Source: Laetmonice hystrix
Lineage: Eukaryota
Direction of reading: 5' to 3'
Assembly (NCBI GenBank): GCA_965235115.1
Contig: OZ249436.1
Coordinates: 44,020,001 to 44,084,000 of the forward strand
DNA: 64,000 bases
Shown piece by piece: positions 16,068-50,900 of the stretch. Position 1 is the first letter of the stretch. Every line of letters starts with the position of its first letter. The position numbers were made by a program, and so were the translations under genes. The notes beneath the pieces are model-generated. The model was given only the letters and a program-made list of their open reading frames with translations. It made no database searches and was not told the DNA's origin.

Positions 16068-17534
16068 TATCAGACTATCAGACGCTCTTAAAATCTGACA
16101 GGGGATTAAGCAGTGATTCCCACCATTTATTGAAAGGTCAGAAGAGGAAGGACTGCATGAGGTCAATGATTTGAAATGTTATATACTATGAAGAAGATTC
16201 GCGTTTTTATGGCGAATCTTTATTGGGAACACGAATCGGGAGATGTCAGCAATCACATTTTAGAGAGACTTTAAAAAACTGCACCAAATGGTACTTGTCC
16301 TCGTTTTTCTATTTGCCATGACTGTTTCATGCCTGGAAAACCAAATTTAATTTTCCATGACCTTTCATGTCCTGATGTTTCGGCAATCAGCAGCCTGGGT
16401 CAAACTACAGTGTGCCTTGTGAGCTATCGCACAAGCCTATAATGCCAGAGATGATCACGGAAGAATCAGATTCTGGGGCTAGAGTGGTTCCGTATAAAGG
16501 CGACTGGAGAGTTGAGAATATAACTAAAAATTGAAAATACCTTTAAAAAATGAAACTGGACTTAATGGCTGGTCCAAGTCCTATACCGTTCGAAGATCTG
16601 GCGTCTGGAAACACACGATAGCCCATTGAGAGTCAACTGATTTGGAACCTTGCCGCAGATTGAGCCCACTGACGGGGTACGGGTTCTATTGCTAGATCCC
16701 TTTAGAAGAGTTGTGTCCACCTATCGCCGAGTTACACCCTCACCTCTCCAGGTGGACACATAGCAACCGAGCCGAACTCTTCGTACTGTCAGGTTTTCAA
16801 CAGCGTCTGTTTCCAGACTACGACCGAACGCGGAGACCGGTGCCTCACAGTTCCCTACATTACTACAGTGGTGGTAATTGCTTTATATATCCCCCTCCAG
16901 TTCGAGGACCACAGAAAGGGTGTGCACATATACTTAACGTTATGATAGGATAAAAACAAAATTCCGCCGAAATTAAAAGTATTCAAGTACTACAGGTCTT
17001 AGGTAAAAATTAAATACAAATTTTGATACACATTTTACGTCTGTAAAATTTGTTTTAATGAACATAAACAGAAATTTTGAAAATCACACAGCAAATTTGT
17101 GGTCAGTGCCCTCTCCATATTGCAGTCACGTGTGCATGTCTTGAGTTCTTTGATATGCAAATTAGGGTGTTAGTCGCAAGGCCTATTGTAAGACGCTCTA
17201 TTGTTTTGTCTTCTGTTCTGCTACCCACTGACCCACAAAGATTATGTAAGTGGGGATTACCTGCATGAAGCAGTGAGCCCCACGAACCACCAGCAAGCAC
17301 CGCAACTACCAAGCTAGTTATACCTTGTCGTATATGGTGATGTCGGAAGCAAATTTTTGGTGCGGGGCGGGGGTGGGGGGCAACTAGGCCCTGTTTCAGG
17401 TAAATTTTAGGTTACAAGTGTGCGTGGCAGCGGTTAAATGGACAGAACTCAACCCTTTATAGGCCCGCTGAGACATGATTCTTGGGGGGGGGGGCAAAAC
17501 ATTTCCAGTTCTTTGGTGTTTGGGTGCGTGTGTA

Positions 17535-17607
17535 TGTTAATGGCGTAAAGTGTGGACAAGTGTCAGTTTACACACCCTCAAAGCGTGGACCATGGCAAAG
17601 CGTGGAC
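17535..17607 (+). repeat. Left terminal inverted repeat plus subterminal AAAG(T/C)GTGGAC motifs
   Basis: AAAGTGTGGAC at 17547, CAAAGCGTGGAC at 17579 and 17596; reverse-complement orientation relative to the right-end motifs. Confidence 0.75.
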
Positions 17608-19002
17608 GTCCACAGATTGTTTTCTTTCAAAAACCGACTTGTGAGGACTCTGTGTAGCGCCCCCTGTCGTCCCTTTCGTGAACTAGGCCATGTCCACCAA
17701 TAGCGGCGTTTAGCGGATGTGTGAGTGTGTGGTAGCCGCGCCGAGTGTATGTGCCCCTTTTCGCAGGTCCTCTCTTTATCGGTAACAGTAAGAATATAGT
17801 TTCACTAAAATCCGTTAGGGGGCTGCGCGCTCCCCGCAGCGATGTTTCACGTTGAGTTTTATATATTTTGATGGTGACTCTGCCTGGAGAGTGTCAGCAG
17901 GTCCACGGAACGCGCGGTCAGGGTCAATCAGTCCTCGGAGGGTGCGCAAGGAGCCAGTACACTCAGGTTAGTCTCTAACTTGGTAAAATAGTATTTTAAC
18001 CCGTATTAGACCCTACTTGACAATGTTGGAATACAAACAGGACGGTTGTTAGATCTACTGTCTTATTATTAACATAACAATTAACCCGTGTAGCCAATTA
18101 AAACCCTTCTAGACAATCAATGAGTATCAAAATTCGAGAAGGGCCCGAGAACACGCCCTCCCACTATCCGCCATATTACATTTCATCATCATCAATCATC
18201 CCCCATCTACATTCAGGAAATGTGGAGAATTCCTAGACTATATCAAAGCGCCACTTAGACCCATTATAAAGTTACCATTATAATAATTGGGGATGGCGCC
18301 TGCATAACTGCGAACAAACTGGGAGCCTGACCCTATTAATGTTAATCTTTTTTGGTACCATTCATTGTCCTCACTTTGAAGGCCACATTTTTCGTAAATG
18401 TGTCCAGACCTTTTAGCCTGGCTTTCCGTTCAGTGGCGGATCTAGGGGCAAGGGTGTAGCCTTAGGGGGTTTCCGGGTTGCCTGGAAACCTCCTCCCCTC
18501 CCCCAAAAAGATAATTAATAGATAATTAAATAGATATAAATGATTGACTAATATTATGGTTGGACCCCCCCCCCCCCACTTTTAGTTGGACCCCCCCCCC
18601 ATCTCGATTCTGCCTACACCCCGGAGGGGGTGTCTGCGACGTCCGAACCCCGCCCCCCCCCTCAAATTTCCCAAATTTCATTTTTAACCAAAATATAACA
18701 ATCTCTAGGAGGTGTAGAGGATAATTTCATTTTCCTAAAACATGGCCAAAGTTGTCCTGGGTGGCCAAAGTAACCCCAGTTTACTTATTCCATGTTTTAA
18801 TTGGTTTGTCATTTGTAAAAATTATTTTTTATGCCTGTATTAAACTCGGATAACCTTGTGTGTCCTCCCTTTGTATAGGCCTAGGTTTATATAATTACTT
18901 AGTTTGTGTCCTCACTCCTAACTTACTCAAGTGACCCCGTTGCACTAGGTTGATTATACTTTAAAAATTTGCAGACATTTTCACTTATTTTACATTAGGA
19001 AC

Positions 19003-20935
19003 ATGCCACGGCAGAGCAGGAAACCACCGGAAGAAGTGGCAAAGCAGTATATTCGATCAAATAGTGACCCACCTTGGATATGTGAACAACACATCAGTGA
19101 TGAAAAAGGTCAGTTCAAGATAAATGTATCTGACAAGCAGGCAGTTACCATTTCTTAATGAGCCATGATAATGAAACTATAATATTTGTAGGGATGGGAG
19201 GTGTATGTTCAAACAAGGGGAGGGTGCTTTCACTTTCAGTAGTGTTACGTAACATCATTATGGCTATATTCTTAGTGGTAGCCACTGGGGAAAAAACAGC
19301 AGTTGGTAAAACTTTGAGTACTGGTCATGGATATCATTTTTATGGTTTTAAAATTGAAATGGTTTGCTTTTACAATTCGTTTCTGTTTGGGACTGTTCTA
19401 GTTATTTATAAGACTAGACTATCAAGGTTATTACAGTAAAACTGTTGGGCTCAAGTTTGTGATCCATGGCTTGCTAATGAATCCCCGAGAGGCAGTAGCC
19501 ACCTAACTTTGGTTGGACCAAACTCAGATGAGGACAAATTACATTTTTTACAATTCCTAATGTCAAGCAAACATTCCTTTACTGATATAACAAAGCACAC
19601 CATTATTTTATTTTTTACCATAATGTAGTCCATATATAGTGGAATATGTAATGTGCTTTGTATTTTTTTTTAAATTAAAATTGTATAGGGGCACCAGGTA
19701 CTGCTCTCACTGTCCTTTCATCTGGGCCAATTATTTAGCATTTTTGGCACCCCCTCTCCCCTTCTTAAAACCTACAGCTGGAAATTAGGGGGGTGGGGGG
19801 TGGGGCTCGTAAATGCTTATTCTTGTTAGATTTGACCATGTTATGTACCCTATATACCTTTCACAAATTTAGACAGTGCCCCAAGGTTTCGTTGCCCCTG
19901 GAACAAGTCAAGTTTTGGAATCGCCCCCCCCCCCTTCCAAAGCTGCAACACTGAGCACAAGGAACCGATTCTTCTCTTGTCTCCAGCCTTCAGGATCGGG
20001 TGCTGCACTACACTAGCAGAGCCAACAAATTTTCATAGGGGTGGAAATGCTGAGACCAGTAATCCCTTTGGGGTGGCCCGGACATTGGTAGCCCTAAAAT
20101 GTAAATGTTGTGTGGACCAGTCCGTGGAGTGGCAAGTTAGGTGGCCAGCAGGCTTGAGTTTAGGGTAGCCACGTAAATTGTTGAACAGCCCCTAAAAGCA
20201 CATGTACTGTTTCAGGACGAGGGGTTGTGTGTTGCGACGATATCTTGCCAGGGCAGTTTGTGGCAGAATATAAAGGTGAACTAGTAACAGCTGATGAAGC
20301 ATCTGCACGGGAAGAGGAACAGGACAGCGTGTTCCGTTTTTTCTTCACGTGGCAGAAGAAGGAACTTTGGTGAGATTCTGCGATGTTATCTTTAGTGAAA
20401 GTAGAAGGTAATTTCTGTGTCTTTAAACAAAGGTCATGAATGATAAACATGACTACACATAGCACTATATTTGACTTCCCACTGTAATTATATTGCCTGT
20501 GGCTATGACCTTGACAAAGACTTGTTTTTTTATGTTTCTAGTGTTGATGCTTCAGAGGAGCCTGTAGCAGGCCCCAGACTTGGCCGACTTGTCAATCATG
20601 GAGAAAAGTCAGAAAGAAACAGTAGAATGAAAGTTGTGGAGGTGGAATGCATACCAAGGCTTTGCTTGTTTAGTACTTGGTGAGTCCTGTTTGATTTTAG
20701 AAGCCACAGATATGAACAACGACTACCATAGAAGTTTTCAGAAACATGGATACCATGTGGCTCCTCATTTCTATTTGACAGCTTTATGGAACATGATTAT
20801 CTGTGTTTTTGTAAAAAAAAAAGAAAGATTTTGTCTCATGAAGTGTACTTTCCTGACAGTGACATCGGACCTGGCACAGAAATTATGTATGACTATGGGA
20901 TCAAAGAAGAAGATATGCCATGGAAGAAGGCAAAG
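19003..20935 (+). CDS. Exons 1-4: SET-domain lysine methyltransferase (PR-Set7/KMT5A-like)
   Basis: Spliced translation MPRQSRKPPEEVAKQYIRSNSDPPWICEQHISDEK-GRGVVCCDDILPGQFVAEYKGELV...KELCVDASEEP...RLGRLVNHG...LCLFSTCDIGPGTEIMYDYG...PW; hallmark GRGV, EYxGEL, RLVNH and YDYG motifs. Confidence 0.9.
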
Positions 20936-23900
20936 GTTAGTGCCTTTGTATATTCCAGAGTCTCATAAAAACTTTTCCTTTCAGTTCGCGCTTTATTAGA
21001 CAGATTTCTAGTAATCTCTTGCCTTGTGAAAACTGTGTTATTTAGGGCATATGCGTAGGAATAGGGGTCTACAACCCCTCCCCCCATATCAAAGGTGAGG
21101 GGGAGGGGCTGAAGTGTCGTTCCGCAACACCCTGCTCCTTAAATCCTCCTTGGTCTCCCAGGAAGGACTAGACCACCGCGGGCCTCTTCATTTCTGTCAG
21201 AATTTGATCTCCAGAAGCCGGGAGATCCTGTTTTGGGCCTTCAAAATTAAAAATTTTCCGGGGAGCCTTCTGGACCCCATGCTGAATATAAAGTCTGCAC
21301 CTTCGGTTCGGTGCTTGCAGGGCACCACATAGCCGGCACTCTTAGGCCCCCCTAACAAAAGCTTCATATGCGCCTATTGGTTGTGGGTGAAAAAGGAATT
21401 GTGTGTGTCCCCCCTTTGTGTCCTCATATTGTTGCAAACTTTAATCTGGTCAAGTGGCGGGTGTGTCCACACTTATTTCAGTTCTAGGTTATAATGTCCT
21501 CACTTTGGTACATTTTTGGTCTAAGTGTGTCCTCACTTTGTAGCAATGAATACTTTTGTTTTTCCTAAGACTTACAAAAAGGCTAAGATTTCATTAATAC
21601 GTAATGGCTCTACGGCATAGGCCTACGGCGTACGGCATACATTGGAAATGGCCTGATTAAAGTGGGACAGATTCCATATTAGACTGGGATTGTATGGCAC
21701 GACTAAAGAGTAGTGTAGGAAGGAAAAATATATTGGGGGGGGGGGGGGGGAGGGGCAGAAGTGAAGTCACAATGACTTGCGCCTATGCTTTTTCATTGAG
21801 CCATGCGGTCATTTTATAAATATTTGGGGGGGGGGGGGGTGCAGCCCCCTCTGCCCCCAGCTTCCTACGCCCCTGCTATATGGCGTATGGAATAGGAGTC
21901 GCTCCCTGTAACGATTTTCGCCGTAACCGTATGCTTTCCGTAAGGGGAACTCTAAATAATTAATAATCACTAATCACGGCTTCCCTGGGGTCTTCCCTGG
22001 CCTTTGCACGCTACAAAGGCTTACCATGCAAGGACCGTATAAATTTTATGGAATCATCCGTATGCTCTTTACGTACGCCGTATGCCGTGGCCGTAGAGCC
22101 GTAACGCATTTATTGAATCTCAGCTTAAGGCCTCTACAAGTTTTAATATGATAATTATTTTGTTCGTTTGCATTAGTGGCTTAATGTTGATCGTGTCCCT
22201 GATAGTAATTATTTATCAAGTCCAAGAAATTAAATGGCACAGATGGCTATCTCCAGTAGAAAAGTATTATAGGTTGTCTGAAGACTCAGGGGTACCGAAA
22301 TATGGCTGTCTCTTTTTAAATGTTATGTTGTTTTCACAATTATATGAAGATTTTAAAAACTTTGCAGATACATCAACCTATTGGTTTGTATAGATATAAG
22401 ATTTTTGCTTTACATAGGCCTATGACGAACGTTTCCAATCAAATTCATGGGTGTCCGAAATCGGGGAGGGCCCAAACAGGGCAGTTACCCCCCCCCCCCC
22501 CCCGAATGGATAGCATTGTTTACAACACCATAAAAGAAAAGCTTAGAACTACACCCTGCGTGTCCTTCTTTATCCATTCAATAACTATATTTCAAAGACG
22601 TATACCCATATTTTTCCTGTTTAAAATGCCCCCATTAAAAAGTATTACCCTCTACCCTACCCCCTTCGGGAAATACGAACTATGCCTCTCTCAGGAATAT
22701 GTTCTACGGACGCCCATGAACACAAGTTGCTGTTATGTTGCCTTGGAAATGTCATCAGCCACGAATTATATTTACCGGTATAATCTCGATAATGTTATCA
22801 ATTTTTTTTATTCAACAATCGACGTCCACTTTGCCAGCAACACTCTAAAAGATCCTTCTTTCATTGCATTTGTCCTGCTGGTCTTCGGGCAATTCTTTGG
22901 CCCACTACGATTTAACTACTGAAAGATCACTGATATTTTTGCGTTAATGCATCATTTCAACGCCATCCCGTATCCTTTTTCCCTGATTATTCTTTTATGT
23001 AAGAGATTATACCAATATAATAAATTTCCACTCATGTATTTCTGTTTAAATATTTTCAAGTCGTGAGAAGCCCATGATTCAGAGATGTTTACTTACAGTG
23101 TTTTTGTAAAATATATTGAGCAGGTACAGCGGAACAGTTTCGACAGTGGGGGGGGGGGGCTATATCAGTATAACGGAGGTGAAACTATTGGAGATTTTTT
23201 ATTTAGATTTTATTATCAATTTGGTTCTCAATATTCATTCCCACCTTTAACTATGGAAGTCTTGGTCGACAAGAAATCGGGTGGGCCAAAAAATATTGGA
23301 ACACTCTTTTTTTGACTATAACTTCTACAATTACTCCGATGTCATAATGTTTTGCACATATCATGTGATTATTTGGGGCCTGTGGTACAAATTTCAGAAA
23401 GTGTCTGAAAGTGAAGCATGGATATGTAGGTTCACATTTGCAACAGCATGATACCATCCCAACTCAGCATTTCATTATACCTTAATGGCCAATGAAACAG
23501 CTAAATGTAAAACATAGCAAACAAAATAGAAGTATTTGGTAGCCTGTGTTGAATATTCTTTATTCCGTCAAGTTTAAAACCGATTATTTCCGCACCGTCA
23601 CAGGTCCAAACCTCACGAATGGTGTCAGTGATGCCCTACTGGGTCCGGTTGCCACGACTACCGGCCCAGAAATTGTCGGTGATGACCTCCTTTGTCCCGT
23701 TGCCATGGCTTCCACCCTTCAAGTTCCCGATAATGTTCTAAGTCCCGTTGCTAGAGTTGCTACCCCTAAAGTTACCTGTGATGACCTCCTGGGTCCAGTT
23801 CCCAAGGTTACTGCCCCTCACGTTGCCGGTGATGACCTCCTAGGTCCCGTTGCCACGGCTACCACCCCTCAAGTTGCCGGTGATGACCTCTTGGGTTCAG

Positions 23901-26900
23901 TTGCCACGGCTACCACTCAAGTTGCCGGTGAGGACCTCTTGGGTCCAGTTGCCACGGCTACCACTCCTCAAGTTGCCGGTGATGACCTCCTAGTTTCCGT
24001 TGCCACGGCTACCACCCCTCAAGTTGCCGGCGTGGACCTCCTAGGTCCCGTTGCCACGGCTACCACCCCTCAAGTTGCCGGCGATGACCTCTTGGGTCCA
24101 GTTGCCACGGCTACCACTCCCCAAGTTGCCGGCGATGACCTCCTAGGTCCAGTTGCCACGGCTACCACTCCTCAAGTTGCCGGCGATGACCTCCTAGGTC
24201 CAGTTGACAGGGCTAGCGCCCCTCGAGTTGCCGGCGTGGACCTCCTAGGTCCCGTTGCCACGGCTACCACCTCTCAAGTTGCCGGCGATGACCTCCTAGG
24301 TCCCGTTGCCACGGCTACCACCCCTCAAGTTGCCGGCGATGACCTCCTAGGTCCAGTTGACAGGGCTAGCGCCCCTCAAGTTACCGGTGATGACCTCCTA
24401 GGTCCCGTTGCCACGGCTACCACCCCTCAAGTTGCCGGCGATGACCTCTTGGGTCCAGTTGCCACGGCTACCACTCCTCAAGTTGCCGGTGATGACCTCC
24501 TAGTTCCCGTTGCCACGGCTACCACCCCTCAAGTTGCCGGCGATGACCTCCTAGGTCCAGTTGACAGGGCTAGCGCCCCTCAAGTTACCGGTGATGACCT
24601 CCTGGGTCCCGTTGCCACGGCTACCACCACTCAAGTTGCTGGCGATGACCTCTTGGGTCCAGTTGCCACGGCTACCACTCCTCAAGTTGCCGGTGATGAC
24701 CTCCTAGGTCCCGTTGCCACGGCTACCACCCCTCAAGTTGCCGGCGATGACCTCCTAGGTCCAGTTGACAGGGCTAGCGCCCCTCAAGTTACCGGTGATG
24801 ACCTCCTGGGTCCCGTTGCCACGGCTACCACCACTCAAGTTGCTGGCGATGACCTCTTGGGTCCAGTTGCCACGGCTACCACCCCTCAAGTTGCCGGTGA
24901 TGACCTCCTGGGTCTAGTTACCACAACTTCTGTCCATCAAGTTGTCAGTGATGCCCTCCCGTGGTCCGTTGCCATGGCTACCACCCCTCCATTTGTCAGT
25001 GATGCCTTTCTGGGTCCTATCGCCATGGCTACTGCCCCTCAAGTTGATGAAGTCCAGCCTAGTACATCCGCTACCAGTGCTCTGCCAGACAACAGTAATG
25101 AGATGATGATCACTGATTCCCAAAGTCCGGGCCAATCTAGTACAGGAGGTACGAGAATAATAACCAAGATCAATGTTGTTTCCGTCCTCGCTTAGTTTCA
25201 ACTTTGGTGTCCTCACTTTGTTTCAAGCCTGGTGTGTGTTCTTAGCTTGCTTCAGCCTTGGCATATGTCTGTCCTCACTTTGCTCCAACCTTGGTGTATG
25301 TGTCCCCATTCTGCTCCAACCTTGCTGTATGTGTCCTCACTCTGCTCCAACCTTGGTGTATGTGTCCTCACTCTGCTCCAACCTTGGTATATGTGTCCTC
25401 ACTCTGCTCCAACCTTGGTGTATGTGTCCTCACTCTGCTCCAACCTTGGTATATGTGTCCTCACTCTGCTCCAACCTTGGTGTATGTGTCCTCACTATGT
25501 TTGAAGCTTGCCAGGTGTGACTGCACCATGTTTCGACCATGTGTCGTCACTTTGATATTCTCAACATTGGGGTCTGTTTCCTCAGGTTGTTTTAACCTTG
25601 ATGTGCGTTATCTTCACCTGTCTCCGACCCTATATTTAATTGTTCATCTTTTAGGTGCAGCCGCTACTGATGTCATCGACCACGCGTCATTTAGTGAAGA
25701 TGGTGAAGATGAAGATAGTATGGAGGACTATGTACCAGGCTCATCAAGCAGCGAATCAAGTTCTGACTATTCGGATGTCATACCCTTTCAGGGTCTGCCC
25801 TCTGCAAAAGGAAACCAGGAAGCTAAGTACAGAAAAGCCATTTCCAAGATGTGCTCAAGAGCCCTGGAAGCTCGACAAGCCCCACAAGCATCCACCAGTT
25901 CAGATAGTTTCATCAGCCCGTCTAGTGCCCTGGGAGCCCGACAAGCCCCACAAGCATCCACCAGTTCAGATAGTTTCATCAGCCCGTCTAGTGCCCTGGG
26001 AGCCCCACCAACCTCCGGTTCGGATGATGTCCTAGGATCACAAAGTGCCCTGGGGACATCACAAGCCAATGATGCAGTTTTGCATAACAGAAAAATAAGA
26101 GTCATGGTGGCAGACAATGAACAAGGAAGAAAATGGGACAAAATCTATTACTGTTTATATTGTCAGAAGCCACAGAAGAAATTGCCAAGACATATAACTA
26201 CTCAACATCCGGACGAGGTGAAAGTTGTGGAGTACTGCAATGAAAAGAACAGTCTAAGGAAATCACAGAAAATGTGTCTTCTTAGAAACCTAGGTAACCA
26301 CAAACATAACTGTGAAGTGCTGAGAAAGGGAGAAGGGATTTTGATAGTAACTCACAGACCAGTGAGGGCAACCCTACCAGACGAATACGGTCCATGTGAA
26401 ATTTGCTTTGCCTACATCCTCAGAAATGATCTCTGGAGGCACAGATGTCCGCTTAAGGATGAACAGGAAGAGGAACCAGTGAAAAAGAAACGCAGAGCAG
26501 TCAGTTGTAAACTCCTTCTTCCGCCCCCACCAGGTATCAGCGAAAATTTGCACACAATCACCCATTCCATGAGGGCCGACAACATATCCAGAATCACAAA
26601 AAGTGACAACCTCATCCTGGCCCTTGGAGAGAAGTTGTATCAAAAGGTTGGGCACAATAAATTTCAACATAATTACATCAGATGCAAGCTAAGAGAGATG
26701 GGACGTCTCCTTGCCCAATTACGTACTGATACTGGGAAGTCAAATTCAAAGCTCGAAGACTTCATTGAGCCTGACCAGTTTAGGGTTGTACTAGCTGCAG
26801 CAAGACGAGTCTGTGGATTCGAAAAGGAAGGTCAAACGTACAAAACGCCATCACTTGCATTGAAGTTAGGCCATAGTCTTCGAAAGTGTGCCAAGATCTG

Positions 26901-29335
26901 CCAAGGACAGTCAATAGAGTTGAATAACGAAGAAAAACAGAAAAAGGTGAAATCTTTTCTAAAACTGATGGATATAAACTGGACAGAGGAGATGTCAACT
27001 CAGGCACTGCGTACCTTGTATGAATTAAAAAGGAACAAGGTCAAACTTCTTCCTCTTGTTGAAGATGTCCACTTGTTGTCGGCGTATCTAAAGGAAACGG
27101 GAAAGAAAGCTGCTGCTTACTTAACAGCAAGCCAGAGTGAGGATCCAAAATATACTTCTCAATGGGACGTTCTTCGAGATGTTTTGTTGGTTCGACTCAT
27201 CCTCTTCAACAGGCGGCGACAAGGTGAGGTTTCACACATGTCTGTTGAGGACTACGCCAAGGTCCATCAGGCTGGTCATGAAGGCTTTGTGATGGAAAGT
27301 TTAACCACTCTGGAACAGAATCTCAGTCGCCACTTCTTTCGTGTTGAGATCCGCGGAAAGCGTGGAAACACTGTGCCGGTACTTCTCAACAAAGAGTGTA
27401 AAGAATGGCTGGATGTCTTAGTGGCTACCAGGGAAAAGGTTGGTATTGCTCCCGGAAATGACTACCTCTTTGCCAGATCACATTATGGATCTCTTGACCA
27501 TGTCAGAGGTTCTGACTGCTTAAGGGACATGAGCGAACAGTGTGGAGCAAGAGAGCCTCAGCTACTACGAACGACTAAACTACGCAAACAGATTGCGACA
27601 ATGAGTCAGATCTTAAACTTAAAAGATCACGAGCTTGACGTACTAGCCCGGTTCCTCGGCCACGATATCCGAGTACACAGGGAGTATTACCGCTTACCAG
27701 ACCAAACCCTTCAAGTGGCCAAAGTGACAAAACTTCTCTTGGCAATGGAAAAGGGAGGGCAAGGCCTACAGCTTGGACAGAGTCTAGATGACGTCAACGT
27801 AAACGTGGNNNNNNNNNNNNNNNNNNNNNNNNNNNNNNNNNNNNNNNNNNNNNNNNNNNNNNNNNNNNNNNNNNNNNNNNNNNNNNNNNNNNNNNNNNNN
27901 NNNNNNNNNNNNNNNNNNNNNNNNNNNNNNNNNNNNNNNNNNNNNNNNNNNNNNNNNNNNNNNNNNNNNNNNNNNNNNNNNNNNNNNNNNNNNNNNNNNN
28001 NAAACAAAATAGGGATTCCTTTACAGAAATTGATGCCAATTCTGGACAGTCGAGTGAAAGCGATGGGGACCAGGGAAGCCAACAGGACAGTTCTGCCAAC
28101 ACTGAAGCATCGAAACGTGTATCCCAAAGAAATATCGCAAGTCAACTGGAGATAACTCCGGGGAGTACCACAGCAAGTCAACAGAAGAACACCAAACAAC
28201 TTAAAGGTAGAAATCACTAATTTCGCCCCCCCCCCTGCATTTTCACTTCTGTTGATCGCAACTTTAAAATAGATTTATTTAAACAGGATTCTAATGCATC
28301 AGGGAGTAACTAATTTATTAGCATGATGTCAGGTGCTGGTGATCATAATCATTCCCACCACTGTCCCAGACCGTAAGAAATCTTCTCCACGGCCCCTTCA
28401 CCTGAAAGCCCTGGCTTGCTTTTGTGCGTCCTCACTTTGTAGGATGAGTGTAATGCCTATAGCCATGTCCTCAGTCTGTTGTGTGTGTCCTCACTTCGCG
28501 GTGTCGGTGTGGACTGTGTCCTCACTTTGTGCCATTGGTGTGTTGTGTGTCCTCGCTTTGTAAAGTGGGTTTAATACATAAACCCATGTTCTCAGTCACT
28601 CAGTGTCTTGTGTTTGTCCTCACTTCGTGTACTGGTTCGTAGTGTGTCCTCACTTTGTAGCATTGGTGTGGTGTGTGTCCTCACTTTGTAGCATTGGTGT
28701 GGAGTGTGTCCTCACTGTGTAGCATTGGTGTGGCGTGTGTCCTCACATTGTAGCATTGGTGTGGCGTGTGTCCTCACATTGTAGCATTGGTGTGGCGTGT
28801 GTCCTCACTTTGTATCATTGGTGCGGTGTGTCCTCGCTTTAATTGTAAGGTGTGTTTTATGCATAAACCCATGTCCTCAGTCACTCAGTTTCTTGTGCGT
28901 GTTCTCACTTTGTAGCATTGGTATGGAGTGTGTCCTCACTTTGTAGCATTGGTGTGGTGTGTGTCCTCGCTTTGTAGCATTGGTGTGGTGTGTGTCCTCG
29001 CTTTGTATCATTGGTGTGGTACTTAATTATTTTAAATATGAAGTTTTTGTTTATTCTGAGTTTAAATTAAAGTAAAAATTCATGAATGACTTCGTTACAT
29101 TGTTATAGAGCCAGCAGAAACATCTGTTCGCCGGCCCCAGAAGAAAAGAGGCTGGAACGAGACTGAGGTCAACACTGTAATGAGATACTTCAGTACCGAC
29201 ATCGCGCTGGGGAACCTGCCGGGAAAATCACAAATAGAAGCTATGCTTGCTGCAGAACAGCCATTGGAACACCGGTCGTGGAGGAATGTCAAAGATTTTA
29301 TTAGAAATCGCATTGTTAGTCAGAAGAAACTTTAA
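19003..29335 (+). CDS. Spliced SET domain - repeat linker - Zn finger - tyrosine recombinase - Myb/SANT-like fusion protein (~1550 aa or more)
   Basis: Exons 19003-19108, 20216-20369, 20542-20679, 20860-20935, 23398-23425 (tentative), 23604-25148, 25655-27808+ (N gap), ~28013-28206, 28333-28372 (tentative), 29109-29335. All visible junctions are GT-AG and phase-compatible; the junction inside the gap cannot be checked. Confidence 0.7.
21579..22126. mobile_element. MITE nested in intron 4 of the YR-element gene
   Basis: ~55-bp imperfect TIRs (AAGGCTAAGATTTCATTAATACG...CTCTACGGC / GCCGTAGAG...ATTGAATCTCAGCTT). Confidence 0.7.
23604..25148 (+). CDS. Repeat-rich linker exon (17-aa GDDLLGPVATATTPQVA units, 51-bp period)
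   Basis: Acceptor cacag|GT at 23604, donor GGAG|gtacga at 25148/25149; 1545 bp with no stop; phase 1 matches the acceptor of the YR exon at 25655. Confidence 0.7.
25205..25500 (+). repeat. Intronic 31-bp array carrying the element terminal motif
   Basis: TGTATGTGTCCTCACTCTGCTCCAACCTTGG. Confidence 0.9.
25655..27808 (+). CDS. Tyrosine recombinase exon with N-terminal Zn fingers
   Basis: YCLYCQKPQKKLPRHITTQH (C2H2) and CEIC...HRC. Catalytic-type motifs LFNRRRQGE (27211), RGKRG (27352), TTKLRK (~27577), FLGHDIRVHREYY (27658-27690). About 718 codons without a stop up to the N gap. Confidence 0.9.
27809..28001. other. Assembly gap (N run) inside the YR gene
   Basis: Ns. Confidence 1.
28425..29000 (+). 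repeat. Intronic ~31-bp array carrying the element terminal motif
   Basis: GTGTGTCCTCACTTTGTAGCATTGGTGTGGT. Confidence 0.9.
29109..29335 (+). CDS. Terminal exon: Myb/SANT-like helix-turn-helix module
   Basis: ttatag|AG CCA...; PAETSVRRPQKKRGWNETEVNTVMRYFSTDIALGNLPGKSQIEAMLAAEQPLEHRSWRNVKDFIRNRIVSQKKL*, W...W spacing typical of Myb-like folds. Domain identity is inferred. Confidence 0.7.
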
Positions 29336-30023
29336 ATGTGTAAAGATCCGGGTTCCGTTCGTGTCTGGTTACTTAGCATTGTTATGAGCACAATTTTTAA
29401 GACACATTAAAAGGATTTCAGTGAAAATCACAAATAGAAGCTATGCTTGCTGCAGAACAGCCATTGGAACACCGGTCGTGGAGGAATGTCAAAGATTTTA
29501 TTAGAAATCGCATTGTTAGTCAAAAGAAACTTTAAATGTGTAAAGATCCGGGTTCCGTTCGTGTCTGGTTACTTAGCGTTGTTATGAGCACAATTTTTAA
29601 GACACATTAAAAGGATTTCAGTGAAAATCACAAATAGAAGCTATGCTTGCTGCAGAACAGCCATTGGAACACCGGTCGTGGAGGAATGTCAAAGATTTTA
29701 TTAGAAATCGCCTTGTTAGTCAAAAGAAACTTTAAATGTGTAAAGATCCGGGTTCCGTTCGTGTCTGGTTACTTAGCGTTGTTATGAGCACAATTTTTAA
29801 GACACATTAAAAGGATTTCAGTGAAAATCACAAATAGAAGCTATGCTTGCTGCAGAACAGCCATTGGAACACCGGTCGTGGAGGAATGTCAAAGATTTTA
29901 TTAGAAATCGCATTGTTAGTCAGAAGAAACTTTAAAAGTGTAAAGATCCGGGTTCTGTTCGTGTCTGGTTACTTAGCGCTGTTATGAGCACAATTTTTAA
30001 GACACATTAAAAGGATTTCAGTG
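29224..30023 (+). repeat. Four tandem 200-bp copies of the last-exon end plus 3' UTR
   Basis: AAAATCACAAATAGAAGC recurs at 29224, 29424, 29624 and 29824. Confidence 0.95.
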
Positions 30024-30259
30024 TATTTTCGCAACTTCCTGTTTTTCTTGATGCAGTTTTAGGGGTAGCTCTAGGTACCCCACCTGACTGTAGTGATTAG
30101 GCCCCTATATATCCCTCCTGACTGTAGTGCTAGAAGTATCTCTTTTTCAAAGCAGCGGACGTTTATTTGACTCTCAAGTAGTACTGAAACTGAAGAATCG
30201 GGGAACTTCTCGCAATTTTTATCATTACGGGTTGATGCATGCCCCTGGGTTCTTAGTAT

Positions 30260-30532
30260 GGTGCGTGTCCTCACTTCGTAGCATTGGTGTGCGGTGTGTC
30301 CTCAGTTTGTAGGAAGTTTAATGCCTATACCCATGTCCTCGGTTTGTTGTGTGTGTCCTCACTTTGGAGCATTGGTGTGGTGTGTTTCCTCACTGTGTAG
30401 CATTGGTGCGATGTGTGTCCTCACTTTGTAGCATTGGTGTGATGTGTCCTCGCTTTGTAGGATGGTTTTAATGCATAAAGCAATGTCCTCAGTAAGTGAG
30501 TGTAGCATTGGTGTGGTGTGTCCTCGCTTTGT
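30260..30532 (+). repeat. Third array of the element terminal motif
   Basis: Repeated GTGTCCTC(A/G)CTTTGTAG...ATTGGTGTG. Confidence 0.85.
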
Positions 30533-31070
30533 AAAGATAATGAACAATTCGTCCAATTCCGCTTTGTTTTAAAAATTGTTTGTATTTTATTGGATATTTA
30601 AATAGAGTATTTGCATTATATCTGTATCTTAGATAAAATTGTATTCGTTGTTGAACCCAACCTTTAATTTAACGGGTATCTAGATATACATGTATTTCTG
30701 GCATTATTGTCCCTGGTGAAGAGTAAAGATCGCGTGTAGTTTACCTACACAAAGTTAAGATGCCTTATTTCACAATTTTAAGGAGTTTTCCCAGCACTAC
30801 AAGCAGAGTATTGTATGAAGGAATAACCTGAAGGCGTCAGGGGGACAAGTTGCCCATCATTGCTTTTTCCAACCCTTCTACTGTCAAGAGTAGACGAAAT
30901 AGGAAACGTGTTTAAAATAACAGTAGGTGAAGTTGAAGTAGGCCAAATCCGAGTAGATGAGGTCGGGTTTTATGTCTGAGATTTAGGTGGTCGCACTGAG
31001 TTGCTCTAATTAATCGTGAGTAATCTCCTAAGATAGTATTCGATCGAGACTGAACCAAAGTGGTCTTGAT

Positions 31071-31730
31071 CAGGCGCGGATCCAGGGGGTGCATTGGGTG
31101 CACGTGCACCCCCCTTGAGTCCCCATTTTTATATATAGGCCTATATTAATCAAACCCCTCCCGTTCCAAGTGACCCGCATCTGGCAAACCGGCACCAAAA
31201 CCCACTGACCCGCGAGGACAGCCATAGGACCCACCTGAATGATAAATCTAGGGCGTTTTAGGCCTAGATTTATCATTTAGGTGGAGCCTATCCTCTTTTT
31301 TGCCACTTTGTGTCGTTTGTTGAGGATAGTCTGCGGCTTGATCACACGTGCATTAGTAAATTTAGCTCAGATTACATATGCGCCATCAGGTGGCCTATAG
31401 ATCTATAGCCACGCATATCTGATAGATGGCGATTGTGCCCCCCCCCCCCCCTTTTTTTGCAGACTGACTTTTTAACGAATTGCTAAAAAAGCTAGGCCTA
31501 TTTTCAGCTGACTCTAAGACCTTGCAGCCTATGTTGTTCCCAGATGCCAGGAAAACGCATATTTGGCACTTTATTTTTAGGCTTATATTATTATTGAAAC
31601 TTGGGACCTATATGTAAGTAGTCGTAAAATAGTGATAAGAACTGATGCACCGTCCTATACTTTGGGGACCTCACAAGTATCTTTGATGGTGCACCCCCCC
31701 CCCCCTACAGAGCAACTGGATCTGCCCCTG
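31071..31730. mobile_element. G-run MITE nested in the 3' part of the YR element
   Basis: CAGGCGCGGATCCAG / CTGGATCTGCCCCTG imperfect TIR (12/15). Confidence 0.5.
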
Positions 31731-32055
31731 TTGATGATGGGTTGGTTTCATCAGTTGGATAATTTTTAAGGCGGACTGCAGTAGGCCTAGTTTCATTTAG
31801 AATAAATTGCATACGCAGTCCTGCTTTTTACATGCAGTATACGAAATGTCCTCGTACTACCCCATCCATTGGGTATGGATGTGTCCTTACTTTGGTGACC
31901 CAATTAGCTTTCAATACACATGTGGTCCCACCTTTGATAGATTTTGTCCACACACAAAAAAATGTTAGAACTTAACGAAATTAGAGTTTAAGCCTCATTA
32001 GGTTAATTTAATATACCATGCAAAATAATGGCCTAATATCTTTAGAAATAAAAGA

Positions 32056-32106
32056 GTCCACATTTTGTAGGTTTCAGACACATGTCCCCACTTTCCACCA
32101 TTAACA
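32056..32106 (-). repeat. Right terminal inverted repeat
   Basis: GTCCACATTTTG...GTCCCCACTTTCCACCATTAACA, followed by CGTA(TG)n; AATAAA at 32047-32052 just inside. Confidence 0.75.
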
Positions 32107-32107
32107 C

Positions 32108-32110
<3 letters not shown>

Positions 32111-32141
<31 letters not shown>
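32111..32141. repeat. (TG)n microsatellite at the right junction
   Basis: Pure TG run just after the right TIR. Confidence 0.95.
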
Positions 32142-47900: not shown

Positions 47901-50900
47901 AGTCACATCACAGCACGCTCAGCACAGAATGCTAGCTCAAGCAAATTCACTGAACACGCGTCATTACCGTATAACACATCATTTTTATTTTGTTAATTCA
48001 TATTTTTTATATATAGGCTAAAAGGCCATAAGAATGGAACACATGCCAAACTTTATCCACGAGAGGGAGTTACTAGTATGATCAAAGGAAACGAGACAAG
48101 TATGACAAGTATAAAAACTGTACGCTCGTAGTGAATGTGAAGGACAAAAGATCTCAAGTGACACCTCACCAAACCTAATCTATCCCCGACTCCCGGTCCT
48201 CAGATATCCTCAAAATACTGACCTCTATCTCTGCCCCAGAACTTACCACCGGCCCTCATACATCCTCAAATACTGACCTCTATCTCTGCCCCAAAACTTA
48301 CCACCAGCCCTCAGACATCCTCAAAATACTGACCTCTATCTCTGCCCCAAAACTTACCACCGGCCCTCATACATCCTCAAAATACTGACCTCTATCTCTG
48401 CCCCAAAACTTACCACCGGCCCTCATACATCCTCAAATACTGACCTCTATCTCTTACCATAACTTACCACCGGCCCTCAGACATCTTCAAATACTGACCT
48501 CTATCTCTGCCCCAAAACTTACCACCGGCCCTCAGACATCTTCAAATACTGACCTCTATCTCTGCCCCAAAACTTACCACCGGCCCTCATACATCCTCAA
48601 ATACTGACCTCTATCTCTGCCCCAAAACTTACCACCGGCCCTCAGACATCCTCAAATACTGACCTCTATCTCTGCCCCAAAACTTACCACCGGCCCTCAG
48701 ACATCCTCAAAATACTGACCTCTATCTCTGCCCCAAAACTTACCACCGGCCCTCAGACATCCTCAAAATACTGACCTCTATTTCTGCCCCAAAACTTACC
48801 ACCGGCCCTCAGACATCCTCAAATACTGACCTCTATCTCTGCCCCAAAACTTACCACCGGCCCTCAGACATCCTCAAATACTGACCTCTATCTCTGCCCC
48901 AAAACTTACCACCGGCCCTCAGACATCCTCAAATACTGACCTCTATCTCTGTCCCAAAACTTACCACCGGCCCTCAGACATCCTCAAATACTGACCTCTA
49001 TCTCTGTCCCAAAACTTACCACCGGCCCTCAGACATCCTCAAATACTGACCTCTATCTCTGCCCCAAAACTTACCACCGGCCCTCATACATCCTCAAAGA
49101 CTGACCTCTATCTCTGCCCCAAAACTTACCACCGGCCCTCAGACATCTTCAAAATACTGACCTCTATCTCTGCCCCAAAACTTACCACCGGCCCTCAGAC
49201 ATCCTCAAATACTGACCTCTATCTCTGCCCCAAAACTTACCACCGGCCCTCAGACATCCTCAAAGACTGACCTCTATCTCTTACCATAACTTACCACCGG
49301 CTCTCAATGTCATAGGATGTTACCACCTCATGATAGAAATAATTAAAACAAACAGACCAACCAATGACCCGAGAATAAATCATTTCTTTATAATTGTAAA
49401 GATAAAGATATTTCTCAAATTGTGACAACCTTACCCACATAGTTCCCGGTGCCGTGATACGCTATGAAATGGAGAAGATCACTCAGTACAGTAGGAAACG
49501 TCAGGTGTACTTATTATAATTCCCGCCCTAACCGATTACCAAGGTGACCTAATCTTTCTGAGCTGACTCTCAAACGTTACACCGATTACCAAGGTGACCT
49601 AATCTCCCGGAGCTGACTCTCAAACGTTACACCGATTACCAAGGTGACCTAATCTCCCGGAGCTGACTCTCAAACGTTACACCGATTACCAAGGTGACCT
49701 AATCTCCCAGAGCTGACTCTCAAACGTTACACCGATTACCAAGGTGACCTAATCTCCCGGAGCTGACTCTCAAACGTTACACCGATTACCAAGGTGACCT
49801 AATCTTCCTGAGCTGACTCTCAAACGTTACACCGATTACCAAGGTGACCTCATCTCCCAGAGCTGACTCTCAAACGTTACACCGATTACCAAGGTGACCT
49901 AATCTTCCTGAGCTGACTCTCAAACGTTACACCGATTACCAAGGTGACCTAATCTCCTATACGGCGTGGAACTCACCCATGGTTCCCCACACAGTCGCTC
50001 TAATTCTGATCTCTCACACCACAAACATTTCTTCACCAACACTGACGATTTCAGTTTTGGAATGTGTGTTTTTTCCCCTCTGAGCGGGTAACAGTAACCG
50101 GGTGGTACGTACATTTTATTTTTAAAGACGGCGGCCCCTCGTGTAGGGACAATGTCACCTGTTATCATCTTGAATGATGTCGTCTTCCCAGCCCCGTTAA
50201 CACCGAGCAGGCCAAAACACTGAAACCGCAAAACAAGTCTTCACAACGGGTGGGGGGAGGGGGGGGGGAGATTTAAAAAAGTACAAGTTACAGTTCAGCG
50301 TCACAAAGTAAGTGTTCAGATAGAGAGAGAAAGAAGAAAGATATATTTCAAATGTAAAGTAGATGACACAACCTATAGTTTAAAAAGGTGTCGGGCTATA
50401 TTAAAACAGTTACAGAATCATGGTTGCTGTCAAGAGGTTCCAGAGCGTCTCACCAGGGTGACAGGCTGTTGGTCAGTTATTGACCACGACAACGACTTCA
50501 TGGATTCAATACGGGTTTTTGAAAACATGTTATGACAAAGTTTATTACGGGTGGTTCACCACACTGAACATTATTCCTAACTCTACCACATCTTGGCTCA
50601 CGCATGACAACCCCCACCACAACAACAATACAGTAGAGAATGCTAGGACCTACCTCACCACGTGGGACACCTAGGCACAGATTGTTGACGGCTAACACTT
50701 TGTTAAACCCACGTCGGTATACCTACAACGAGAGAAAAACACGAGAAAACATCTTATAGAGAGAATATGGTAACATACTGACATGTCACATGTAAACAAA
50801 CATCTTATAGAGAGAATATGGTAACATACTTATAGGTTAAACGAACATCTTATAGAGAGAATATGGTAACATACTGACATGTCACATGTAAACACACATC

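Follow-up and report, generated by a model that had tools for sequence, protein, structure and literature searches.

Amplification of a terminal motif into internal arrays in a CryptonV-like transposon of Laetmonice hystrix and in its relatives

We analyzed a 64,000-nucleotide stretch of the Laetmonice hystrix genome (GenBank assembly GCA_965235115.1, contig OZ249436.1, positions 44,020,001 to 44,084,000 of the forward strand; hereafter the window) and find that it carries a CryptonV-like DNA transposon on the forward strand at 17536-32105, inserted in (TG)n. The element belongs to a family, here called family A, for which a genome-wide search for its ends gave seven copies with common ends and different flanks, each 13.0-14.7 kb end to end. 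These copies are 98.6-99.7% identical outside tandem repeats, and every one of them keeps its spliceosomal introns. A 22-bp terminal inverted repeat (TIR) is present at all 14 family A ends, adjoining a 6-bp spacer; in the window the left TIR (17536-17557, reverse strand) is identical to the right TIR (32084-32105, forward strand) at 19 of 22 positions. All insertions are in TG-type repeats and in a single orientation, with the right junction in such repeats in seven of seven copies and longer ones at the left in six of seven. The sequence GTATGT at the left junction (17532-17537, forward strand) is a direct repeat of 32108-32113 and likely the crossover region; across the family the junction repeat reads GTATGT in four of seven copies, GTATG in five and GTA in all seven, so direct repeats of the Crypton type (4-6 bp, terminal) are present. 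Inside the element, the inner half of the TIR has been amplified into oriented arrays. This amplification is real and family-wide, and its repeated, family-specific occurrence in related elements is what is new.

The gene of the element is read from the forward strand. Four SET-domain exons (19003-19108, 20216-20369, 20542-20679 and 20860-20935) are joined at GT..AG boundaries by a spliced contig from run X1, and the second has a Pfam SET match (E = 9.5e-5). The RNA evidence consists of four runs from one sample of one study, possibly the source of the assembly, with spliced joints from X1 alone and for the 5' part of the gene. Next is a 51-bp coding-type repeat with a 17-amino-acid unit (23628-25046, in an open frame at 23543-25195), which is without the motif and is predicted, probably, to be an alternative exon. 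It is followed by an exon that encodes two zinc-finger-like motifs together with the tyrosine recombinase (YR; 25655-27747), whose 3' boundary is not readable in the window, and by a last exon encoding a Myb/SANT-like three-helix tail (29109-29335). The YR catalytic residues are R371, K420, R495, H521 and Y530 (in the frame starting at 26101); among homologues R371, R495 and H521 are conserved in 94 of 94 and K420 and Y530 in 93 of 94, and the H of HxxR is a T. A structural model of the YR (predicted local distance difference test, 86) matches XerH, XerA, Cre and Tn1549 Int (best E = 2.7e-4), and a fold search against viral proteins gave distant phage integrases only. We find 290 recombinase homologues, unnamed or "uncharacterized", in echinoderms, molluscs, hemichordates, fish and frogs. 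The long frames of the element are those of the SET, repeat, YR and Myb-like regions; no search aimed at reverse transcriptase was made. The sole spliced contig joins 20935 to 25655 out of frame, giving the SET region plus 126 residues and a stop. An in-frame protein would need the 51-bp-repeat exon; possibly, then, splicing decides whether SET alone or the full protein is made. From 29223 to 30023 the 3' half of the Myb-like exon lies in a 200-bp tandem unit whose number varies among copies.

The amplified word is GTCCnCACTTT. The earlier note, made from the sequence alone, had called it the TIR core; it proves to be the inner half of the 22-bp TIR and not a recombination core. In the window GTCCTCACTTTG has 13 exact matches, and 35 with at most one mismatch, on the forward strand and none on the reverse strand, where 200 first-order Markov simulations of the element gave a mean of 0.075 and a maximum of 1. 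These 35 copies span 18367-31894 in seven clusters, and all 35 are in right-end orientation, which the earlier note had held for nearly all copies. The motif is also present, exactly or as a close variant, at every place where it had been listed, from 18367 to 32084. At the left end, the inner half of the TIR holds the first inverted copy (17546), followed by inverted sites 2 and 3 at 17579 and 17596 (spacing, 33 and 17 bp); to these three inverted copies, seen earlier, we add a fourth near 17640 and a head-to-head forward copy at 17608 that forms a GGAC/GTCC palindrome (whole feature 17579-17648, reverse strand). Dispersed forward-strand copies follow upstream of the first exon seen (18367-18919): that at 18367 is exact, that at 18862 has one mismatch, and that at 18908 is exact over its first nine bases with three mismatches over 12. 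Four more (21407, 21420, 21496 and 21529; 21407-21540) lie in the 5' part of the intron 20936-25654. Array 1 (25184-25554), a 31-bp minisatellite carrying the motif, stands just before the acceptor of the YR exon at 25655 and has 5.4-11.4 units among the seven copies. Array 2 (28428-29005), also a 31-bp minisatellite, is in a predicted intron (28209-29108), and array 3 (30267-30531), again of 31-bp units, comes after the stop codon. Subterminal copies at 31883 and 32056 (31883-32067) precede the right TIR, in which the distance from the start of the motif to the GTATG junction is 24 bp; arrays and right-end copies are all on the forward strand.

The arrays had been placed in the element's own introns, and this stands for 26 of the 35 copies: 11 in the intron 20936-25654, which the spliced contig bridges, and 15 in an intron predicted from GT..AG. 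It does not stand for the rest, with seven copies after the stop codon and two upstream of the first exon seen; none is in an exon. Reads of the four runs gave no support for splicing of the array 2 intron or for the transcript 3' end. Since the copies are mostly units of 31-bp minisatellites they are not independent, and independent events number closer to 7 than to 35. The host genome is itself rich in minisatellites (74 Tandem Repeats Finder rows in the window). Two other insertions in the long intron, at about 21600-22105 and 23230-23435, are high-copy inverted repeats at which the depth of DNA contigs reaches thousands, compared with about 200-300 elsewhere.

A genome-wide scan ties the motif to the element copies. 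All 50 exact genomic occurrences of the 16-mer TGTGTCCTCACTTTGT are inside the seven copies (control, 0). The exact 12-mer occurs 138 times, 96 of them in the seven copies (100,278 bp) and 42 in the other 627 Mb, which compares with 61 for a reversed control and is chance level. Thus the earlier statement that the motif was not seen outside the element holds within the window, where GTCCTCACTTTG has, outside the element, no match at up to one mismatch and three chance-level matches at two mismatches, and not for the genome, where copies occur at the chance rate. The whole 22-bp TIR, at up to two mismatches, has 14 genomic matches, all of them ends of the seven long copies; this search returned no short derivative of family A, and all seven copies are long, with 28-39 motifs each. 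By the same search the tip half of the TIR has no internal copy and occurs only at the 14 ends, so that the recombinase sites proposed earlier are, in the crossover sense, not supported. The idea that the arrays are copies of the whole end was likewise rejected: the tip half is absent inside, and flanks match only modestly.

We used the recombinase as a query to find related families in the same genome, which gave 83 matches (79 of 139 candidates scored). About 30 loci were examined; both ends were fixed in eight families (A, B, C, E, X, J, L and P) and the right end only in D and F. Recombinase identity is 39-49% for A, B, C and E and 28-30% for J, L and P, and X is recombinase-less. The ends fall into three motif classes: GTCCnCRnTT in A-E and X, ACCCCAnA in L and P, and a CCTnnnnAGG-like word in J. 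As fixed patterns, each class is abundant only within its own families; for instance, L has 33-41 L-type and at most one A-type internal match, and E has 77 A-type and no L-type matches. To guard against circularity, motifs were learned from the terminal 130 bp alone and then counted in the interior. The interior sense/antisense counts are 38/2 in A, 82/0 in E, 44/1 in P, 40/19 in C, 25/32 in X and 4/48 in J, against an expectation of 1.2-2.3 per strand. Right-end orientation extends beyond family A to E, B, L, P and, for the most part, C and D; J and one F copy are opposite, and X has both. Targets follow lineage, with (TG)n for A-E, J and X, (TCTG)n for L and P, and one F copy that ends in (GA)n.

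Within nine families, 16 of 36 tandem arrays carry the family's own motif class, at least one per family, where L, B and D were scored with the learned motif of a sister family (P, C and C, respectively). By comparison, among 89 distinct arrays of the host only 0-1 have one of the six motifs; the loci of K, M, N, G, H, Q, R and C3:971911 were used in this control and in the 455-kb background, a selection made once their array result was known. The units that carry motifs measure 31, 56, 68, 73, 102, 125, 147, 160, 183, 194 and 282 bp and are unrelated. In the long units of D, L and B, four or five motifs stand between diverged spacers, and GTCC-anchored array sites of four families agree at positions +5, +8 and +9 (76, 72 and 82%) and not in their flanks. 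The flanks of internal dispersed sites match the array unit or the ends only modestly. Judged from their units, the arrays arose several times, each time around the family's own word. The arrays of TG-targeting families also contain more TG-like than TCTG-like words in 9 of 10 cases after masking, and those of TCTG-targeting families the reverse in three of three, a comparison that spans few lineages. Their place in the element varies freely between families, so they do not sit in the same introns of diverged families. An operator around the YR exon, suggested earlier, does not hold as a general rule: in L, P, J and B the arrays are close to the left end or occupy different introns, in D they come after the gene, and among the other families only E resembles A in having them on both sides of that exon.

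Several further observations concern these relatives. The recombinase exon is intronless in A-E and contains introns in F and I-N. At the place before the recombinase where A has its 51-bp repeat, other families have unrelated low-complexity coding repeats (units of 24, 18, 48, 36, 117 and 198 bp), and duplicated Myb-like exons occur in B, C, D and H. Family X is present as three 13.6-kb copies (C18:20360187, C10:4217488 and C2:23598969) with A-like ends and no recombinase; it retains part of SET and an intact Myb-like exon, contains a 4.5-kb array of 183-bp units with GTCCTC in both orientations, and is a candidate non-autonomous partner or repressor element. The insertions of A at C5:34137581 and of family C on C30 have both flanks in common, and a B-type element on C10 shares the left flank; A at C5:4567128 and B on C10 have a common right flank. 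Different families have therefore hit the same site of other repeats.

Left ends have a site spacing of 33 bp and 17-18 bp followed by a head-to-head pair, where the polarity flips, in six of eight families (A, X, C, B, L and P); E has a 9-bp gap in the head-to-head pair, and J differs. The site spacing of A's left end is the same in X, C and E and partly so in B, L and P. At right ends the distance from the start of GTC to the junction is 24 bp in A, B, C, D, E, X and F, and the bases between diverge. Conserved geometry of this sort is typical of protein-binding sites. Helix 3 of the tail, its predicted recognition helix, is K[DN][FY] in all six A-type families, KKKV in L and P, and KNKL in J, and the recombinase-less family X keeps both the Myb-like tail and A-type ends. 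That helix 3 follows the motif class and that X keeps the tail point to the tail as binder, and the Myb-like tail is probably the best candidate for the protein domain that reads the motif.

Based on these data, we propose that the motif is a binding site of the element's own protein and that the arrays are a loading platform letting full-length copies capture that protein, a reading to which we give close to an even chance of being right. Its parts differ in strength. That the motif copies are protein-binding sites at all is predicted with good confidence: diverged families amplify their own end motif, place it at fixed positions at the ends and leave the background unenriched, which is strong comparative support for binding. 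That the arrays are kept by selection is likely too, and if they are, a positive role would be somewhat favored over a damping one. At the ends, the bound domain would position the recombinase 22-24 bp from the crossover, in the manner of accessory or arm-type sites, and the tip half of the TIR, which is poorly conserved, would be contacted by the catalytic domain. Internal sites may arise by point change and slippage in a minisatellite-rich genome. Because the protein is presumably made in the cytoplasm and shared by all copies, a copy with more sites would win more of it and pass it to its own ends, and the internal sites would thereby be kept by selection in cis. The free position of the arrays fits such an avidity role. 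Orientation is probably a secondary filter, set by polarity away from the left-end palindrome and partly by avoidance of cryptic splice donors.

A number of results weigh against this proposal. Motif class, helix 3 and target all follow the tree, which reduces the independent lineages to three or four, and binding could instead be by the zinc fingers. K and M have the helix 3 of L without L-type arrays, and G, Q and R that of F without F-type arrays (ends undefined in all five). In K, M, N, G, H, Q, R and C3:971911 none of the three motif classes forms an array, and ends could not be defined within about 15 kb. Learning from the ends missed the motif that is visible in L, where it gave 0/0 (19/1 with P's motif), and in B, where it gave 0/30 (44/7 with C's). 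There are also off-diagonal matches, of the P motif on B (33/1) and A (11/0), of the L motif on B (30/0) and of the A motif on J (14/14), and family C has few strong sites. Within arrays (copy A1 left out), motif columns are less variable than others in seven of nine cases, only slightly so, and E alone stands out (rank 2 of 56). Helical phasing was rejected as a rule: the 31 bp of A amount to three turns, but 32 recurring spacings give a mean cosine of -0.03 at 10.5 bp. As to the tail, a profile of 17 tails matches c-Myb weakly (E = 0.0026, on helix 1) and TRF1 at E = 0.58, Pfam Myb_DNA-binding is found in 4 of 17 tails (best 0.0019) and not in that of family A, fold searches with a single-sequence model gave only common helical matches, and phmmer of the tail against PDB found nothing. 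Lastly, the copy on C8 is without the Myb exon, yet both ends are present.

A stronger version of the loading-platform proposal would make the word a private address, with the Myb-like tail of each family reading its own 10-bp word and the arrays in its non-coding DNA pairing that word with short copies of the target microsatellite. We regard this extension as doubtful. If true, only full-length copies of the right family would be loaded, and chromatin-marked where SET is present, for excision; the arrays would be a cis-selection device against short parasitic derivatives and cross-mobilization; and a readable helix-to-motif code would exist across a dozen co-resident families.

The same sites could also act with the opposite sign, damping the element by titrating protein away from the ends or by tethering SET and a roadblock over the introns, so that copy number is kept low. 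Copy numbers are indeed low (7 for A, 2-7 for the other families), arrays lie on either side of the YR exon in A and E, the same protein also has a SET domain fused to it, and in piggyBat an internal transposase site restricts activity (the accessible text of PMC11707139), which is a further point against a positive role. Nevertheless, the family with the largest arrays, E, lacks a SET match, the recombinase-less X also has its 4.5-kb array of the GTCCTC core, and array position is not tied to any one exon across families. Copies lacking a brake should spread, yet all seven A copies keep their 28-39 sites. We therefore consider damping unlikely, although it is the alternative that deserves the most weight.

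Alternatively, the arrays could be functionless, a neutral by-product of bound or nicked sites that seed tandem duplication or of end fragments that re-insert. The abundance of minisatellites in the window, the variable length of array 1 among young copies (5.4-11.4 units), the weak conservation of the motif within arrays and the target-like words in arrays (9/10 and 3/3), as captured junction fragments might give, would all fit this explanation. It accounts poorly for the rest, given that the tip half of the TIR is never inside, that the flanks of internal sites are unlike the ends, that spacers diverged and motifs stayed, that A, E, L and P have a strong bias to one strand, and that the 42 chance copies elsewhere are single matches among the 100 places listed. 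We judge it improbable.

A role in RNA would have the internal copies read on the sense strand as pyrimidine-rich words containing YAG, which would act as decoys for 3' splice sites or be bound by splicing factors and so tune the amount of recombinase mRNA. In its favor, right-end orientation is that of the sense strand, and YAG falls within the site or directly behind it in 11 of 27 sites of A, 71 of 76 of E and 28 of 38 of L. The out-of-frame SET-to-YR joint makes splicing choice matter, and flipped A sites would read GTGAG-type donors in 16 of 27, which may explain polarity. Such a role is nevertheless very unlikely: the word also stands inverted at the left end, upstream of the exons seen and with conserved spacing; the arrays of J and F are antisense and those of X run both ways; 0 of 44 sites of D have YAG; and 7 of 35 A sites come after the stop.

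YR transposons of this type are common across animals and have hardly been described. The end motif, the fixed distances between its sites and the corresponding helix changes provide a direct experimental handle on how such elements find their ends, and family A is a young, intact and transcribed family in which to use it. If the arrays help, they would be a case of an element favoring full-length copies over short parasites; if they inhibit, of self-restraint on a large scale. Either way, arrays of this kind are one route by which transposons seed minisatellites with predicted protein-binding sites. Elsewhere in the window, at about 41400-63750 on the reverse strand, exon-sized frames with a Walker A-like stretch (49920-50240) and many intronic minisatellites resemble those of an ABCA-type transporter.

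Among known systems, lambda Int and Tn916-family integrases have a second DNA-binding domain that binds arm-type accessory repeats apart from the crossover core; their arm-type sites are a handful and fixed, without minisatellite amplification or introns. Family A is closest to CryptonV, and membership is likely. CryptonV is described as a YR-encoding DNA transposon with microsatellite-specific insertion (PMC8869645, citing Kapitonov and Jurka 2012) and also appears in a table of PMC5753468. It thus shares with family A the YR, the microsatellite-specific insertion and an animal host, and the accessible portions of these descriptions mention neither TIRs nor an end motif, neither SET nor Myb domains, and no internal arrays, features that are present in family A, with the Myb domain as a Myb-like tail. 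Cryptons in general have 5-6-bp terminal direct repeats and no TIRs, with a proposed circular intermediate of inverted arms around a 6-8-bp spacer (PMC3212892). As far as that account goes, they resemble family A in the YR and the short direct repeats, and the joined ends of family A (22-bp arms, 6-bp spacer) fit the circular intermediate; they differ in that family A has a 22-bp TIR, a subterminal architecture of several sites, internal arrays, and domains of the SET and Myb-like kinds. In the literature searched, with Repbase Reports and most subscription journals outside its scope, we came across no account of Cryptons with internal arrays of their end motif. YRs are also encoded by nimaviruses, according to the accessible text of PMC10871703.

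Sites repeated near transposon ends have precedents among elements with DDE enzymes. Hermes has short subterminal motif repeats at both ends (PMC10368747). In the available parts of their descriptions, Hermes and piggyBat are like family A in the opposite polarity at the two ends, the asymmetric ends, the left quasi-palindrome and extra sites that help or inhibit, and unlike it in having DDE enzymes and sites confined to a few hundred end bases. In Galileo, extra transposase (THAP) binding sites in tandem repeats are thought to aid specificity or efficiency (PMC3688188; PMC4079207). As these sources present them, Galileo and Foldback elements use DDE transposases and have their repeats within long TIRs, mirrored at both ends. 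In contrast, the arrays described here are found as far as 14 kb from the right end; they are intronic, for the most part share one orientation, and are built from unrelated units. A mirrored array, the Foldback-type feature, is found only in family D, at a shared left boundary, whereas those of family A are internal and in one orientation.

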